Shown here one piece after another: positions 2,829 through 21,128 of a stretch of DNA of 21,128 bases; position 1 is the first letter of the stretch; the number at the start of each line of letters is the position of its first letter. The position numbers were made by a program, and so were the translations under genes. A model generated the notes under the pieces. It made no database searches. It worked only from the letters and a program-made list of their open reading frames with translations, and had not been told where the DNA came from. This DNA comes from a virus. Taxonomy: Duplodnaviria > Heunggongvirae > Uroviricota > Caudoviricetes. Location: the IMG/VR virus record IMGVR_UViG_2534682222_000006, positions 1-21,128 of that record; one strand, written 5' to 3'.

Positions 2829-4417
2829 AAATACCATCTTTGGTGGGACCTGACGGGAAAACATCCCTTCGGGAATACGCAGGATATCATGGCGGTGGAG
2901 GCGGGTTTGGTGGGCAGCTGCGAGGCTGGAATCCGCCGAGTGAAAGTGCAGATGCCGCACTCCTACCCAACTATTCTCGCGGAAATGCCCGCGCTGACGA
3001 TCTGGTGCGAAATAATGGCTACGCGGCAAACGCCGTGCAGCTCCACCAGGACCACATCGTCGGGTCATTTTTCAGACTAAGTTATCGACCAAGCTGGCGT
3101 TATCTGGGAATAAATGAGGAGGATTCACGGGCATTCTCGCGGGATGTGGAAGCTGCATGGAATGAGTATGCCGAGGACGACTTTTGCGGGATTGATGCCG
3201 AGCGTAAGCGAACGTTTACGATGATGATCCGAGAAGGTGTGGCCATGCACGCGTTTAACGGTGAATTATGCACGCAGGCGACCTGGGACAGCGATTCAAC
3301 GCGTCTTTTCCGTACTCAGTTCAAAATGGTCAGTCCGAAGCGCGTCAGCAATCCGAATAATATCGGTGATACCCGGAACTGTCGCGCCGGTGTGAAAATA
3401 AATGATAGCGGTGCTGCGCTGGGATATTACGTCAGCGACGATGGTTATCCCGGCTGGATGGCGCAGAACTGGACCTACATTCCTCGCGAACTACCCGGCG
3501 GTCGACCTTCATTTATCCATGTATTCGAACCGATGGAGGATGGACAGACCCGTGGGGCCAATGCGTTTTACAGCGTGATGGAGCAGATGAAAATGCTCGA
3601 TACCCTGCAAAATACCCAGCTCCAGAGCGCGATAGTGAAGGCTATGTATGCCGCTACCATCGAGAGTGAACTGGATACCCAATCGGCGATGGACTTTATT
3701 CTCGGCGCGGATAATAAAGAGCAGCAGAGCAAACTTACGGGCTGGCTCGGTGAAATGGCGTCCTATTACTCAGCTGCGCCTGTTCGCCTGGGTGGGGCAA
3801 GGGTTCCACACCTGTTGCCGGGTGATTCTCTCAACCTTCAGTCGGCGCAGGATACCGATAACGGCTACTCGACTTTTGAACAGTCCCTGCTGCGTTATAT
3901 TGCCGCTGGGCTTGGTGTGTCGTATGAGCAGCTTTCGCGAAACTATTCGCAGATGAGCTACTCGACCGCACGCGCAAGTGCTAACGAGTCCTGGGCGTAC
4001 TTTATGGGGCGTCGCAAGTTTGTGGCATCCCGACAGGCCTGTCAGATGTTTCTTTGCTGGCTTGAAGAGGCGATTGTCCGCCGCGTGGTCACGCTTCCTT
4101 CGAAAGCCCGGTTCAGTTTCCAGGAGGCGAGAACAGCCTGGGGGAATGCCAACTGGATTGGCTCTGGTCGAATGGCAATTGACGGGCTGAAAGAGGTACA
4201 GGAGGCCGTCATGCTCATTGAGGCAGGTCTCAGCACGTATGAAAAAGAGTGCGCCAAACGCGGTGATGATTATCAGGAGATTTTTGCCCAGCAGGTCCGG
4301 GAAACCATGGAGCGTCGTGCTGCGGGTCTGAAACCACCGGCATGGGCCGCTGCAGCTTTTGAGGCCGGAGTGAAAAAATCAAACGAGGAGGAGCAAGATG
4401 GCGCACGAGCTGCGTAA
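2825..4417 (+). CDS. B: portal protein gpB
   Basis: 530 aa, collinear with lambda gpB (533 aa) with high apparent identity through the whole length (e.g. [26 protein letters not shown]). Confidence 0.95.
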
Positions 4418-15778: not shown

Positions 15779-18700
15779 ATGGCTACAGATAAAGTGTTAA
15801 AAGGCCGCAAGGGCGGCAGCTCAAGTTCCCGAACCCCTACCGAACAGCCTGATGATCTGCAATCTGTAGCGAAGGCAAAGATCCTCGTTGCGCTTGGGGA
15901 AGGGGAGTTTGCTGGACAGCTCACCGGGAAGGATATCTACCTGGACGGAACAGCGCTGGAGAATGCTGACGGCTCCCAAAACTTCAGCGGGGTAACGTGG
16001 GAGTTTCGCGCGGGAACGCAGGCGCAAAAATATATTCAGGGTATTCCCGGTACCGAAAACGAGATCAGCGTAGGAACTGAGGTATCAAGTGCCACAGCCT
16101 GGACGCGCACGTTTACCAATACGCAGCTTTCAGCAGTTCGCCTGCGTCTTAAATGGCCCTCGCTTTTCAAACAGGAAGACGACGGCGATCTGGTGGGTTA
16201 CTCGGTCAATTATGCGATTGACCTGCAGACGGACGGCGGCACATGGCAGACGGTACTCAATACCAGCGTGACCGGCAAAACGACGTCTGGTTATGAGCGC
16301 AGCCACCGTATCGATTTACCGCAGGCTGGCAGCACATGGACAATACGTCTGCGTAAGATTACCTCTGACGCCAACAGCGCGAAGATCGGCGACACGATGA
16401 TGCTGCAGAGCTTCACCGAGGTGATTGATGCCAAACTGCGCTACCCGAACACCGCGCTGCTCTACGTCGAATTCGACTCAAGCCAGTTCAACGGCTCTAT
16501 TCCTCAAATTTCATGCGAACCGCGCGGCCGCGTTATCCGCGTTCCAGATACCTACGACCCTGAAACCCGCACTTATAGCGGTACATGGACCGGTGCGTTT
16601 AAGTGGGCATGGACGGATAACCCTGCGTGGATTTTTTACGACCTGGTTGTTTCTGACCGGTTTGGCCTCGGGCACCGTTTGACCGCTGCGAATATTGATA
16701 AATGGACTCTTTATCAGGTTGCTCAGTATTGTGATCAGATGGTACCAGACGGCAAAGGGGGCAACGGTACAGAACCACGCTATACCTGCAACGTGTACAT
16801 TCAGGACCGGAACGACGCCTACACAGTCCTGCGTGATTTTGCCGCTATCTTCCGTGGCATGACCTACTGGGGCGGGGATCAGATTGTGGCCCTGGCTGAC
16901 ATGCCGCGCGATGTTGATTACAGCTATACGCGCGCTAACGTTGTTGGCGGTCGCTTCACCTATTCGAGCAGCACCACGAAAAGCCGCTACACCACAGCGC
17001 TGGTTTCATGGTCAGATCCGGGTAACGCTTATGCCGACGCGATGGAGCCGGTATTTGAGCAGGCGCTGGTGGCGCGATACGGCTTCAATCAGCTGGAAAT
17101 GACAGCTATCGGCTGCACCAGGCAGTCAGAGGCGAACCGAAAGGGGCGCTGGGGTATTCTCACCAACAACAAGGATCGCGTTGTTTCGTTTGATGTCGGG
17201 CTGGACGGAAACATTCCGCAGCCGGGCTACATCATCGCCGTGGCAGACGAGCTGCTTTCCGGAAAGGTTATGGGCGGCCGCATCAGCGCCGTTAACGGTC
17301 GCGTTATCAAACTTGACCGCGTAGCTGATGCAGCACCAGGTGATCGCCTTATTCTCAACATGCCTTCCGGAGCGTCGCAGAGCAGGACCATTCAGGCCGT
17401 GAACGGGGAATCAGTCACAGTCACCACGGCATACAGTGAGACGCCACAGGCCGAAGCTGTTTGGGTGGTTGAATCTGACGAGCTTTACGCGCAGCAGTAT
17501 CGTGTTGTCAGCGTCTCCGACAACGGTGATGGCACTTTCTCAATCACCGGCGCATGGCACGACCCGGATAAATATGCCCGCATCGATACCGGAGCCATCA
17601 TTGACCAGCGGCCGGTGAGCGTGATCCCGCCTGGTAACCAGTCGCCGCCTGCGAACATCGTGATCAGCTCGTTTTCCGTGGTGCAGCAAAATATCAGCGT
17701 CGAAACGATGCGCGTGAGCTGGGACCAGGCGCAGAACGCTATCGCCTATGAAGCGCAATGGCGCCGCAACGACGGGAACTGGGTTAACGTGCCGCGCACC
17801 TCCACCACGTCATTCGACGTCCCGGGGATTTATGCCGGGCGCTACCTGGTGCGGGTGCGCGCAATCAATGCCGCAGAAATTTCATCCGGATGGGGCTATT
17901 CAGAAGAGAAAACGCTGACGGGTAAAGTGGGCAATCCACCGAAGCCGGTTGGCTTCATCGCTTCTGAAAATGTGGTTTTCGGCATCGAGCTGAACTGGGG
18001 ATTCCCGGCGAATACCGACGACACGCTGAAGACGGAAATTCAGTATAGCCTGACCGGTACCGAGGACGATGCAATGCTGCTGGCCGATGTGCCTTACCCG
18101 CAGCGCAAATATCAGCAGATGGGCCTTAAGGCCGGGCAGATTTTCTGGTACCGCGCGCAGCTGGTGGACCGCAGCGGCAACGAATCAGGGTACACAGAAT
18201 GGGTGCGAGGACAGGCCAGCATCGATGTTTCCGACATCACAGACGTGATCCTGGAGGAAATTAAAGACTCCGATACCTTCAAGGACCTGATCGAGAACGC
18301 GGTGGACAGCAACGAAAAAATTGCTGGCATGGCTGACGAAATTAAAAACCATGCCGACGAACTCGAGCAGCAGGCGAAAGACATCCTGGAGAACGCTGAC
18401 GGGCTGGCTCAGGCCGAAGTGAAGATCGACGAGATTTCTGTGTCGATGGACGGCATGACGGGAGGAGTGAAGAACTCGGCAATCGCGATTATTCAGAATG
18501 GGCTGGCGCAGGTGGTAAGCCGTCGCTCGCAGACCGCCACGAACGCCGGGAACAGTGCCAGTATAGACAGAGTGGATACTACGATTGCCGATACCAGCCA
18601 GGCGGTCGCACGCGCGCTGGTCACACTGGATGCAGAAGCTGGTGGCAATATCTCTAACTCAACGGACCTGACAGAAACTCTTGCTGATTTCACCCAGGCT

Positions 18701-19234
18701 TCGGCAACAAAAATCAACACTCTGACTGTTAAATCAGGCGAAAACAGTGCAGCGATAAACGTCAACGCACAGGCTATAGCAGATGTAAACGGTAACCTCA
18801 GCGCGATGTATAACATCAAGGTGGGGGTGTCCAGTAACGGGCAGTATTACGCTGCCGGGATGGGTATTGGGGTTCAAAATACACCCTCCGGCATGCAGTC
18901 ACAGGTAATCTTCCTGGCAGACCGTTTCGCCGTGACTACTATGGTCGGCGGGACTGTAACACTGCCGTTCGTTATCCAGAATGGCCAGGCCATTATCAGG
19001 GATACAGTCATTGGCGACGGGACCATAAGCAATGCAAAAATTGGCAATTACATCCAGTCGAACAATTATGTTGCCGGCTCTGTTGGCTGGAAACTGGATA
19101 AGTCCGGGACGTTTGAGAACTACGGTTCGACAGCTGGGGAGGGAGCCATGAAGCAGACCAACCAGACAATCAGCGTCAAGGATGGCAACAACGTTCTGAG
19201 AGTGCAGGTTGGCCGATTAACGGGGGTGTTCTGA
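15779..19234 (+). CDS. J: central tail fibre / host specificity protein gpJ
   Basis: 1151 aa (lambda J 1132 aa); N-terminal and central regions collinear with lambda J (e.g. YPNTAL. .V..DS.QF, DYCDQMVPDG.GG.EPR.TCN); C-terminal about 300 residues do not match what I recall of lambda J. Confidence 0.93.
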   Translation: MATDKVLKGRKGGSSSSRTPTEQPDDLQSVAKAKILVALGEGEFAGQLTGKDIYLDGTALENADGSQNFSGVTWEFRAGTQAQKYIQGIPGTENEISVGTEVSSATAWTRTFTNTQLSAVRLRLKWPSLFKQEDDGDLVGYSVNYAIDLQTDGGTWQTVLNTSVTGKTTSGYERSHRIDLPQAGSTWTIRLRKITSDANSAKIGDTMMLQSFTEVIDAKLRYPNTALLYVEFDSSQFNGSIPQISCEPRGRVIRVPDTYDPETRTYSGTWTGAFKWAWTDNPAWIFYDLVVSDRFGLGHRLTAANIDKWTLYQVAQYCDQMVPDGKGGNGTEPRYTCNVYIQDRNDAYTVLRDFAAIFRGMTYWGGDQIVALADMPRDVDYSYTRANVVGGRFTYSSSTTKSRYTTALVSWSDPGNAYADAMEPVFEQALVARYGFNQLEMTAIGCTRQSEANRKGRWGILTNNKDRVVSFDVGLDGNIPQPGYIIAVADELLSGKVMGGRISAVNGRVIKLDRVADAAPGDRLILNMPSGASQSRTIQAVNGESVTVTTAYSETPQAEAVWVVESDELYAQQYRVVSVSDNGDGTFSITGAWHDPDKYARIDTGAIIDQRPVSVIPPGNQSPPANIVISSFSVVQQNISVETMRVSWDQAQNAIAYEAQWRRNDGNWVNVPRTSTTSFDVPGIYAGRYLVRVRAINAAEISSGWGYSEEKTLTGKVGNPPKPVGFIASENVVFGIELNWGFPANTDDTLKTEIQYSLTGTEDDAMLLADVPYPQRKYQQMGLKAGQIFWYRAQLVDRSGNESGYTEWVRGQASIDVSDITDVILEEIKDSDTFKDLIENAVDSNEKIAGMADEIKNHADELEQQAKDILENADGLAQAEVKIDEISVSMDGMTGGVKNSAIAIIQNGLAQVVSRRSQTATNAGNSASIDRVDTTIADTSQAVARALVTLDAEAGGNISNSTDLTETLADFTQASATKINTLTVKSGENSAAINVNAQAIADVNGNLSAMYNIKVGVSSNGQYYAAGMGIGVQNTPSGMQSQVIFLADRFAVTTMVGGTVTLPFVIQNGQAIIRDTVIGDGTISNAKIGNYIQSNNYVAGSVGWKLDKSGTFENYGSTAGEGAMKQTNQTISVKDGNNVLRVQVGRLTGVF

Positions 19235-19235
19235 T

Positions 19236-19538
19236 ATGGCTTATGGAATACAGACCTGGGATGCTTCGGGAAACCCCAACAACTACGGAATCAAGCCCGT
19301 TTCCGTTGTTGGACGTATACAACTTGCCGCCGGACAAAACTCCGGCAGCTGGTCTTTCACGGTACCCTCAGGAATGAAGGTCGGTTTTGCGCTCTCACTT
19401 GATGAAGGAGGTAACAGCGTAGGGAGGAGCATTGTCGCGTCAGGGAACACAATAACCGTAACCGCAGCCTCTTCTGTGGGCCTGGGTAATTACCCGGCCT
19501 CTAAATGTGAGGTGGTCGTTTTCATGGAGAAAGCATAA
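19236..19538 (+). CDS. hypothetical protein, translationally coupled to J (possible tail-tip accessory protein)
   Basis: 100-aa ORF starting 1 nt after the J stop (TGATATG); GGGGGTG SD-like sequence upstream; same strand and tight packing imply co-expression with the tail genes; no lambda counterpart at this position (lambda has lom after J). Confidence 0.6.
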   Translation: MAYGIQTWDASGNPNNYGIKPVSVVGRIQLAAGQNSGSWSFTVPSGMKVGFALSLDEGGNSVGRSIVASGNTITVTAASSVGLGNYPASKCEVVVFMEKA

Positions 19539-20212
19539 TGGCCGAATTTGGCGCGATGATATTAATGGATAACGGGAATCCCTTTGTAACGCCACAATCA
19601 ACGCCTTTCTGTCTTTACGGGAAGTATACCTTCAATTCATCCGCGAATGGCAGTTCTCAGCAGGTTGCTCAAAATATCGCTTTAAACGCTGATTACCCAG
19701 TGATGGTTTTTATCAAAACCACCAATACAGCACAGCCCACTCCGGTTATGTCTTACAGGAACGGCGGTAATGTGTATGTTGCTGGTGTTAATCCCTACAA
19801 CCAAAGTTTCACTTTAACGGCGTACGTTTTTGCCATATTCCCGCAGATATTACCGAAATGGGGTTTGGCAATATGGGATGCGAGCGGAAAGCTTGTGTTA
19901 ACTAATGAGTCCCGTGTGCTATCAGACCTGCAGACGGTTGGCACGCCTGGTGCAAACGGCGGGATAAATATTGACCAGACGCTGAGCGGGTCATGGGCCG
20001 TTGCACCTGCTCAGTTGGGTCAGACCATCATTGTGAATAATTCAACCCAGCCTCCGACTATCTACACGATAAATGCTTATTCTTCATGCAGGTTTGACGG
20101 GGCCAATACGAGGATAAACGCAGGGGGGACCTCCACTGGGGCAGGTTCACCTGGAGGGGGAACGAATACTGGCATTTCATTAACCGCCATAAATACAGCG
20201 GCCTATGATTGA
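19538..20212 (+). CDS. hypothetical protein (Gly/Thr/Asn-rich), translationally coupled to the upstream ORF
   Basis: 224-aa ORF; start overlaps the upstream stop (TAATG); GGAG upstream; contains the motif WGLAIWDASGK, related to YGIQTWDASGN in the upstream ORF; Gly-rich C-terminus; visibly lower GC than J. Confidence 0.6.
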   Translation: MAEFGAMILMDNGNPFVTPQSTPFCLYGKYTFNSSANGSSQQVAQNIALNADYPVMVFIKTTNTAQPTPVMSYRNGGNVYVAGVNPYNQSFTLTAYVFAIFPQILPKWGLAIWDASGKLVLTNESRVLSDLQTVGTPGANGGINIDQTLSGSWAVAPAQLGQTIIVNNSTQPPTIYTINAYSSCRFDGANTRINAGGTSTGAGSPGGGTNTGISLTAINTAAYD

Positions 20213-20261
20213 TTGATCGTTTTTAGCGATCAATAACATAATATTGATCTATCCAATCAAT
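20208..20261. promoter_or_regulatory. cluster of ATTGAT/ATCAAT inverted repeats with three GATC sites (candidate operator or Dam-sensitive control region) upstream of the lipoprotein gene
   Basis: ATTGATCG (20212-20219) N7 CGATCAAT (20227-20234) perfect 8-bp inverted repeat; second ATTGAT (20243-20248) N7 ATCAAT (20256-20261); tandem ATTGATTGAT at 20208-20217; GATC at 20215, 20228 and 20246. Confidence 0.4.
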
Positions 20262-20323
20262 TATACCCACCAGAATTGTATTGGTATCGTCTAAGATACT
20301 GAATTCCTCTGGATACTATCAAA

Positions 20324-20557
20324 ATGAGAAAACTGATTATCTGCATGGCAGGCGCTGTCATGCTTACAGGATGCGCTGGCGTAATTGAGAAACAGGAACC
20401 AGTTTGCAGCGGCACTGCAATCGTTGGCGGTCAGGAAACTACGGTTCAGATTTACGGTGTGCGTAAACAAAACAACCAGACGCAGTACCGGGCTGGATAT
20501 CCTTTCAGCTGGCGCTGGGTAAGTGCGAATACATTTACCGAAACAACCTGCAAATAA
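20324..20557 (+). CDS. small lipoprotein, candidate Cor-like superinfection exclusion protein
   Basis: 77-aa ORF with lipoprotein signal peptide and lipobox (MRKLIICMAGAVMLTG|C); a small lipoprotein gene between J and the tail-fibre gene is where cor lies in phi80/N15/HK022-type phages (established knowledge, sequence identity not verifiable here); no clear SD, so the start is uncertain. Confidence 0.55.
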   Translation: MRKLIICMAGAVMLTGCAGVIEKQEPVCSGTAIVGGQETTVQIYGVRKQNNQTQYRAGYPFSWRWVSANTFTETTCK

Positions 20558-20578
20558 CCCACTACGCTTAAACATAAA

Positions 20579-20601
20579 CCTCGCTCCGGCGGGGTTTTTT
20601 T
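20579..20601 (+). terminator. intrinsic terminator downstream of the lipoprotein gene
   Basis: Stem CCTCGC (20579-20584) / GCGGGG (20589-20594) with one G-U pair, loop TCCG, T tract 20595-20601. Confidence 0.6.
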
Positions 20602-20617
20602 ATTGCCTGGAGAAAAT

Positions 20618-21128
20618 ATGCTTTATAACACCGGCACCATCGCCATTAATGGAAATACCGCCACCGGGACGGGTACAAACTGGACGGCACCGGCCAGCCA
20701 GGTCCGCGCTGGCCAGACGATCATCGTCATGTCTAACCCGGTGCAGATGTTCCAGATTTCATCTGTGAACAGCGCCACGTCAATGACGGTTACGCCTGCC
20801 GCTTCCCCGGCGCTGAGCGGCCAGAAATACGCCATTCTGGTGTCAGACATTATCTCCGTGGACGGACTGGCCCAGGCAATGTCGCAGCTCATCAAAGAGT
20901 ATGACGAGAACATTGGTGCGTGGGAGACGTTCGCCACAACCTCAGCCAACCAGAACATTACCGTTACGATCAATGGCACCAGTTTATCAATCCCGGCTCT
21001 TGGGAAATTACTGCAGAAGGGGAGCAACGGAGCTTTGCCGGTTAATCAAGGTGGTACCGGCGCAACGAATGCCGCAGACGCTCGCACAAACCTTGGTTTG
21101 GGAGAAGGTTCGGCATTACCCGTTGGGG
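20618..21128 (+). CDS. tail fibre protein, N-terminal part (truncated by window end)
   Basis: Open frame from ATG 20618 (GGAG at 20608-20611) to the window end with no stop (170 codons by my hand translation); not in the ORF track because it lacks a stop; Thr/Gly/Asn-rich sequence with a ...GGTGATNAADARTNLGLGEGSALPVG motif typical of phage tail fibre shafts. Confidence 0.6.
   Translation, partial: MLYNTGTIAINGNTATGTGTNWTAPASQVRAGQTIIVMSNPVQMFQISSVNSATSMTVTPAASPALSGQKYAILVSDIISVDGLAQAMSQLIKEYDENIGAWETFATTSANQNITVTINGTSLSIPALGKLLQKGSNGALPVNQGGTGATNAADARTNLGLGEGSALPVG

Follow-up and report, generated by a model that had tools for sequence, protein, structure and literature searches.

The DNA immediately upstream of cor, the gene for a lipoprotein that excludes FhuA-dependent phages, was analysed in a 21,128-nucleotide stretch of a tailed phage (positions 1 to 21,128 of IMG/VR record IMGVR_UViG_2534682222_000006; this whole stretch is called "the window" below). 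An array of inverted repeats and GATC sites located there is likely, to judge from its sequence, to be the operator of an epigenetic switch acting on the cor promoter, in which the host regulator OxyR and Dam methylation would oppose each other. Cor, a phage-resistance gene, would probably be switched epigenetically in the same manner as agn43, gtr and the mom gene of phage Mu.

The repeat array and its match to the OxyR consensus

The elements of the array were the following:

20208-20217: tandem ATTGATTGAT
20212-20234: inverted repeat IR1, ATTGATCG-TTTTTAG-CGATCAAT, with 8-nt arms, 100% complementary
20215-20218: Dam site GATC1, about -83 from the predicted transcription start, overlapping OxyR element 1 (ATCG, 20216-20219)
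20216-20252: predicted OxyR tetramer site, ATCG-tTtttAg-CGAT-caataac-ATAA-tattgAt-CTAT, made up of a distal dyad (20216-20230, the core of IR1) and a proximal dyad (20238-20252)
20228-20231: Dam site GATC2, about -70, overlapping OxyR element 2 (CGAT, 20227-20230)
20228-20235 and 20242-20249: everted pair GATCAATA / TATTGATC
20243-20261: inverted repeat IR2, ATTGAT-CTATCCA-ATCAAT
20246-20249: Dam site GATC3, about -52, abutting OxyR element 4 (CTAT, 20249-20252)

A preliminary description of this DNA had listed two inverted repeats, a tandem and three GATC sites in an AT-rich intergenic region upstream of a lysogenic-conversion-type gene. All of these elements were present (the everted pair was absent from that list), and the setting was as described: the spacer 5' of cor (20213-20323) had a GC content of 31.5%, vs. 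53.4% over the whole window. The pattern of repeats and GATC sites exceeds chance. The window contained 78 GATC sites, about 1 per 271 bp; the 1.8 kb between 18428 and 20214, comprising the end of gene J and two small open reading frames (ORFs), had none, three sites followed inside 35 bp, and the next GATC-free stretch 3' of the cluster ran from 20250 to 20718. The GATC triple at the exact 13- and 18-bp spacing occurred once in the window, vs. 0.002 occurrences expected, and ATTGAT-N7-ATCAAT, allowing one mismatch at most, also occurred once (0.08 expected). The tandem ATTGATTGAT was considered a by-product, because the last codons and the stop of the upstream ORF (TAT GAT TGA, stop at 20210-20212) abut the left flank of the site.

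The OxyR consensus used for comparison was ATAGnTnnnAnCTAT-N7-ATAGnTnnnAnCTAT, as quoted in PMC2909390, which has 20 specified positions. The 37-bp site at 20216-20252 matched this tetramer consensus at 16 of the 20 positions: 8 of 10 in each dyad, with N7 between them. This was the top score among the 42,184 positions of the window on both strands (the runners-up scored 14 and 13), and was reached neither in 100 Markov-simulated windows (maximum 15) nor in 2000 shuffles of the AT-rich spacer. Across 1.18 Mb of phage DNA, 24 positions scored 15 or more: 22 were cor-type modules or variants of them, and 2 were unrelated. Scores in the homologous register were 13-16 in relatives, 14 in agn43 and 13 in mom. 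The GATC sites are embedded in the OxyR contact elements, a characteristic of OxyR/Dam switches, and the form of the site is identical to that of proven OxyR/Dam sites. When the sequence was read 3' of 20252, no third OxyR dyad of the gtr type was found in register, 20260-20274 being a poor match. The comparison with known regulator sites, which the preliminary description had proposed, matched the array to OxyR, and not to Fur, FNR, CRP, IHF, pap or HdfR sites.

Conservation of the GATC module upstream of cor

Cor loci were gathered blind to their upstream DNA, by scanning back-translated Cor peptides against one genome per species. The loci selected came from Enterobacter, Rahnella, Hafnia, Citrobacter, Kluyvera, Phytobacter, Dryocola and others, with Cor identities down to about 50%, and 28 of the 33 kept three GATC sites at exactly 13 and 18 bp. 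The triple was carried by 6 of the 7 cultured phages examined, and of 5426 complete E. coli genomes, 43 contained exactly this form of the cor regulatory region. Among cor loci, the 13/18 spacing held while the flanks and the element-3 spacer diverged. The hosts of cor loci include E. coli, Enterobacter, Rahnella and Citrobacter; dam and oxyR are carried by Enterobacterales.

The gap-free consensus of the family was A..GATCGtTtt.A.CGATCAAT-(8 variable)-ATTGATCTat..AA.CaATTaT-(~17 variable)-ttGtTAttgT. The conserved unit is GATC-centred and asymmetric (GATCG-N7-CGATCAAT-N8-ATTGATCTaT plus AAyCAATTAT), which fits a tetrameric LysR-type protein. The repeat ATTGAT-N7-ATCAAT, put forward earlier as the binding unit of a dimeric regulator, was not the unit kept by relatives: the right arm of IR2 was changed to AACCAAT or ATCTAT, and the outer bases of the palindrome were unconserved (left flank TT in some lineages, AC in others). 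As far as sequence comparison can tell, the functional unit is GATC-N9-GATC-N14-GATC inside the 37-bp site, and not ATTGAT-N7-ATCAAT.

All 29 module-bearing sequences (28 loci and the window) used ATCG/CGAT and not the stronger ATAG/CTAT, suggesting that the GATC sites themselves are under selection, beyond OxyR affinity, because selection for affinity alone would let a site drift towards the consensus, and its GATCs would be lost. The same argument was made for the GATC-bearing half-sites of opvAB (PMC4856963).

In HK022-type variants (about 13 phages), a precise 4-bp deletion had removed GATC1, and a G-to-T change had abolished GATC3; GATC2 alone was retained, and the OxyR match stayed at 15/20 despite the loss of two GATCs. 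The N15 module was decayed, with only GATC1 and a shortened spacer (CGAT-N14-CTAT). HK022 (locus L006, ~255-300) and N15 (locus L171, 5500-5560) may be viewed as natural "locked" variants of the cor upstream region; lysogens of both phages were reported to show the Cor phenotype (PMC3594210). The GATC module was absent upstream of cor in T1 (L167), Dhillonvirus JLBYU60 (L170) and Stx2 phage 86 (L168), and its absence from the virulent T1-like and Dhillonvirus phages fits a lysogen-specific control. Erwinia phages and prophages (L169, L029, L041) had two GATC sites 9 bp apart upstream of cor (tcGATCggaacGATCg).

The cor promoter, the predicted switch and its alternatives

The features flanking the array that are relevant to cor expression were:

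19538-20212, plus strand: upstream late-operon ORF, phi80 gp23-like, 224 aa, with homologous coding sequences in the phi80, mEp237 and N15 records
20255-20264, plus strand: conserved block AATCAATTAT, about -43 to -34, located 3' of the OxyR-like site and 5' of the -10; family consensus AAyCaATTaT
20282-20290, plus strand: extended -10, TGgTATCGT (hexamer 20285-20290); the homologous position is a minus_10_signal in the phi80 record FN582354
20298, plus strand: cor transcription start, as predicted by transfer of the phi80 annotation (record position 1097, offset 19201), whose basis is unstated in the record
20324-20557, plus strand: cor, encoding the 77-aa lipoprotein excluding FhuA-dependent phages
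20576-20604, plus strand: rho-independent terminator closing the cor moron, a 9-bp stem followed by a T-run; also delimited as 20576-20597

Relative to the start at 20298, the GATC sites were at -83, -70 and -52, and the OxyR-like site extended from -82 to -46. The TGnTAnnnT of the extended -10 was kept in most lineages; the -35 annotated in phi80 maps to 20260-20265 of the window, and the -35 match was poor (TATACC, 20262-20267). The assignment of the cor promoter is supported by the position of the -10 at +39 from GATC3, which was kept even in the cassettes preceding genes other than cor (described below). The AATCAATTAT block, which contains the right arm of IR2, could be a -35/UP zone or an additional OxyR contact.

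Two alternative promoters, TTAACC-18-TATGAT (20180-20209) and TTGATC-18-CATAAT (20213-20242), were rejected, their hexamers and spacers not being kept in relatives: TATGAT corresponds to Tyr-Asp codons, and the spacer was 19-20 bp in phi80 and Enterobacter. Promoters in or 5' of the site would yield an agn43-like arrangement. The "promoter" annotated for gtr in the P22 record (L046, 21114-21141; TTGATC...TAACAT) corresponded to the OxyR(A) half-site region, and mapping had placed the true gtr start 33 bp downstream of GATC4 (PMC2909390). TTGATC-18-CATAAT in the window is analogous to this annotated P22 promoter, and by that analogy is probably not a promoter.

In the mechanism proposed, OxyR, a LysR-type regulator of the host, would bind the unmethylated site at 20216-20252 as a dimer of dimers. 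Dam methylation of GATC1-3, lying inside or against the OxyR contact elements, would block this binding, and bound OxyR would in turn block methylation of the GATCs. Two self-perpetuating states (unmethylated and OxyR-bound; methylated and OxyR-free) would split a lysogen population into Cor-high and Cor-low cells. Cor inactivates FhuA, so that lysogens gain protection from FhuA-dependent phages and from colicin M but take up less ferrichrome (PMC3594210), and the two types of cell would represent the two sides of this trade-off. OxyR binding, methylation sensitivity, bistability and the resulting phenotype are what we infer for cor by analogy with the known systems.

Higher cor expression in the OxyR-bound state was slightly favoured, because the site is wholly upstream (ending at -46) of a promoter without a -35, because it is in fixed phase with the -10, and because HK022-type variants keep the OxyR score and lose two GATCs, and HK022 lysogens show the Cor phenotype. 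Repression of cor by OxyR, to which we would give somewhat less than an even chance, has the precedent of agn43 and mom, the two known single-site systems, both of which are repressed by OxyR; the mom site also occupies the same promoter zone as the cor site, and N15, with a decayed module, still converts its host, so the promoter does not need the site.

Several observations weigh against an OxyR/Dam switch at cor. A literature search across about 8 million papers yielded none that connects cor with OxyR, Dam or phase variation, and the reported Cor-positive phenotype of both HK022 (one GATC) and N15 (decayed module) indicates that the switch is dispensable for expression. A single dyad alone (8/10) was not significant, being equalled by 335 of 2000 shuffles. 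OxyR element 3 was not conserved among relatives, and the strongly conserved ATTGATC and AAyCAATTAT are unexplained by the OxyR consensus, which makes the contacts of the second dimer, or the involvement of a second factor, uncertain. These last features are also what would be expected if another DNA-binding protein (the LysR-type HdfR or LeuO, or a host or phage factor) recognised the conserved motif, with or without Dam sensitivity: the most conserved non-GATC bases (AAT after GATC2, ATT before GATC3, and AAyCAATTAT) are outside the OxyR consensus, element 3 is variable, and HdfR constitutes a precedent for a LysR-type protein blocked by GATC methylation (PMC6735912). This explanation was nevertheless judged unlikely, as the OxyR match of the 37-mer is highly significant and its dyad form is that of proven OxyR sites. 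A std-type HdfR/Dam switch was rejected: the std GATCs are 13 and 9 bp apart at -242 to -220 (PMC6735912), unlike those of cor (13/18 bp, at -83 to -52). Against a phage-specific regulator, the cassette was found in unrelated phage types, and its presence before unrelated genes in other phages argues for a host binding factor.

Explanations that dispense with a dedicated binding protein, or that invoke a different family of regulators, fared worse. A direct effect of the GATC cluster on the promoter, through Dam alone or via SeqA bound to hemimethylated DNA after replication, seems improbable. The 31 bp from GATC1 to GATC3 correspond to about three helical turns, and SeqA can bridge such a distance; SeqA is also an ancillary factor at opvAB (PMC4856963). 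No GATC was present inside the -10 or -35, however, and SeqA would not need the strict non-GATC bases, the exact 13/18 spacing or the consensus match. A secondary structure in RNA or DNA at the end of the upstream late gene (a terminator, processing site or cruciform) would account for the folding of RNA 20200-20270 at -18.5 kcal/mol (z = -4.8) and for the start of IR1 at the last base of the upstream stop codon, but it is very improbable: there was no T-run, the region was not listed by the terminator scan, and no helix (IR1, IR2, the everted pair or a long-range RNA pair) had compensatory changes above shuffled controls in 29 relatives. Varying arms simply lost their pairing, with the outer pairs of IR1 broken in 13-16 of the 29 and helix I1 59% paired, and half of the left arm of IR1 was deleted in HK022. 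The earlier opinion that the array is not a terminator, given its missing U-tract, was therefore upheld by the terminator scan and by the lack of covariation for a hairpin. Finally, a site for a protein of the FNR/CRP family, Fur or IHF is scarcely credible. FNR half-sites are TTGAT and ATCAA, which the TTGAT/ATCAA half-sites of the array resemble, and Cor acts on an iron-uptake receptor, so that control of a FhuA blocker by iron through Fur would be biologically sensible; the half-sites are spaced by N7 and N11, not N4, and the best FNR match was 8/10 (reached by 292 of 2000 shuffles). The best match to the 19-bp Fur consensus GATAATGATAATCATTATC was 11/19 (1511 of 2000 shuffles), and neither CRP (TGTGA-N6-TCACA, 7/10) nor IHF was significant vs. 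shuffles.

Gene context, related cassettes and known OxyR/Dam systems

The window corresponds to the late region of a phi80/HK022/mEp237-like lambdoid phage, from the terminase to host-specificity protein J (15779-19234). J is followed in the 3' direction by two small ORFs (19236-19538 and 19538-20212), the 111-bp spacer, cor, the terminator and the side tail fibre gene (stf). Cor of the window was 100% identical to phi80 Cor, and its product is labelled "moron gene product" in the phi80 and HK022 records. The locus has the organisation of a phage moron, with its own extended -10 and terminator around an accessory gene between gp23 and stf; a terminator at the end of the cor moron is also annotated in the phi80, mEp213 and mEp237 records. 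One further ORF (20623-21027, minus strand) ran antisense over the start of the tail fibre gene; at the homologous position, the phi80 record has "gene 25, moron gene product", with its own minus-strand promoter and terminator.

A scan of viral contigs for TTGATCG-N7-CGATCAA gave at least 120 stretches, and the figures below refer to the matches listed. At least 72 instances also had a third GATC at +18: 31 before Cor-like ORFs and 41 before other DNA. The non-cor instances formed at least 4 sequence families (loci within L047-L166, e.g. L062, L066, L071, L059, L115, L117 and L150), as exemplified by the module on the reverse strand of L062 (6465-6499). Most non-cor families had a -10-like hexamer (TATCGT, CATTAT, TAGCGT, TAACTT, others) at +39 to +44 from GATC3, and an AAnCnnTTAT block, read by eye, was present in non-cor families at the same offset as the cor block. 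The genes behind these cassettes were small and unannotated, and included membrane proteins; some cassettes were upstream of a tail-sheath-like ORF in apparently P2-like phages, an assignment based on likeness to the N-terminus of P2 FI. When the small ORFs behind non-cor cassettes were scanned against PHROG, only a Dam-like methylase was recognised. A related form with four GATCs (L054, 12091-12140, plus strand; also L149) was located 37 bp upstream of a Dam-like methyltransferase's start codon, without the fixed -10 offset, and may serve as a Dam-sensitive operator for the gene of a Dam-like enzyme. Two of the non-cor families were analysed by BLAST: one matched a single unannotated Enterobacter phage, and the second had no match in cultured phages or E. 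coli genomes.

In L082 (~3526-3600), L088 and L146, the TTGATCG-N7-CGATCAA dyad was paired with an ATAG-N7-CTAA dyad (15-16/20 OxyR match). This differently arranged module directly adjoins the side tail fibre gene at its start codon and points away from the gene; it possibly serves an antisense moron.

A tentative proposal, held with rather less than even confidence, is that temperate Enterobacterales phages place a portable "epigenetic promoter cassette" of about 110 bp before many accessory genes. The parts of such a cassette might be an OxyR-type operator, three Dam sites spaced 13/18, the AAnCnnTTAT block and a promoter that lacks a -35 and has its -10 at a fixed +39 from GATC3, though we hold this composition no more firmly than the cassette itself. 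With the same reserve, the accessory genes behind it may comprise cor, small membrane proteins, a moron slot 5' of the P2-like tail sheath gene and, behind the related four-GATC form without the fixed -10 offset, the Dam-like methylase.

Cor is a widespread prophage superinfection-exclusion function, and cor was found in many other genera besides E. coli. If cor is switched by OxyR and Dam, resistant and sensitive cells would coexist in lysogen populations, with effects on phage-host dynamics, on phage therapy that uses FhuA-dependent phages, and on how sensitive the populations are to colicin M and albomycin; HK022-type phages and N15 would constitute ready-made natural "locked" controls, and a reusable regulatory cassette among phage morons would be indicated. 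If the cassette proposal also holds, phase variation of lysogenic conversion would be a strategy of phages in general and not a peculiarity of gtr, and cor would be an instance of bet-hedging between FhuA-blocked (phage-/colicin-resistant) and FhuA-active (ferrichrome-using) cells.

The switches to which the array had been likened in the preliminary description were pap and agn43. The first analogy failed: a pap-type Lrp/Dam switch requires two GATC boxes within Lrp sites at a distance of 102 bp, together with a PapI-like co-regulator (PMC2909390), and was rejected for cor, with its 13/18 spacing and no second GATC cluster. The second was borne out by an agn43-type architecture (the 16/20 OxyR match, the geometry of mom and agn43, and the half-sites of gtr). 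Both agn43 and Mu mom are controlled by OxyR and Dam (PMC2909390), and methylation abrogates OxyR binding at agn43 (PMC2909390; PMC13076061). In common with cor, agn43 (flu, in the CP4-44 prophage of E. coli) has one compact OxyR site with three GATCs, forming a single-site toggle. Its GATC spacing is 13/19 vs. 13/18 in cor, one GATC being shifted by 1 bp; the GATCAATAT motif is common to both, and the OxyR scores are 14/20 and 16/20 respectively. The agn43 site is at or downstream of the transcription start, where OxyR acts as a repressor, whereas the cor site, at -82 to -46, precedes the predicted promoter, so that regulation may have a different sign in the two systems.

Promoter region I of Mu mom contains GATC-N14-GATC-N9-GATC, which is the spacing of the cor triple in the opposite orientation: the 13-bp GATC pair is promoter-proximal in mom and distal in cor. 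The mom GATCs are at about -87, -69 and -56 from the predicted mom start, vs. -83, -70 and -52 for cor. In both cases the site is upstream of a weak promoter of a phage accessory gene, with no evident sequence homology beyond the site. Expression of mom requires the phage activator C, and OxyR represses it.

In P22 gtr, ATTGATCG-ggtaaca-CGATCAAT and ATTGATCG-cttgtat-CGATCAA reproduce the arms of cor IR1, and these half-sites, OxyR(A) and OxyR(C), have two GATCs 13 bp apart, as in IR1. Binding of OxyR to them in electrophoretic mobility shift assays was abolished by Dam methylation, OxyR protected the GATCs in vivo, and gtr phase variation was proven, also in E. coli (PMC2909390). The gtr and cor sites each precede the promoter of a lysogenic-conversion (superinfection-related) operon carried by a prophage, and both have CTATC..ATTATAC after the central dyad. 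The gtr region has half-sites A, B and C separated by N17 and four GATCs, with alternative tetramers (AB = ON, BC = OFF); the one site of cor is compact, with four elements and three GATCs, which precludes its use of this alternative-site mechanism. Salmonella opvAB resembles cor in that GATC-bearing OxyR sites lie upstream of the promoter, at a phage-resistance locus that was acquired horizontally (PMC4856963). There, OxyR activates independently of its redox state, and the GATC-bearing half-sites deviate from the consensus (PMC4856963). It differs in having four half-sites over about 130 bp and four GATCs, with opposite methylation in ON and OFF, vs. a single 37-bp site in cor. A 2026 review gave only agn43, gtr and pap as direct examples; cor is predicted to be a new, previously unreported member of the known OxyR/Dam kind of switch, and would be the fifth such locus, after agn43, gtr, opvAB and mom, in a simple, compact and natural form.

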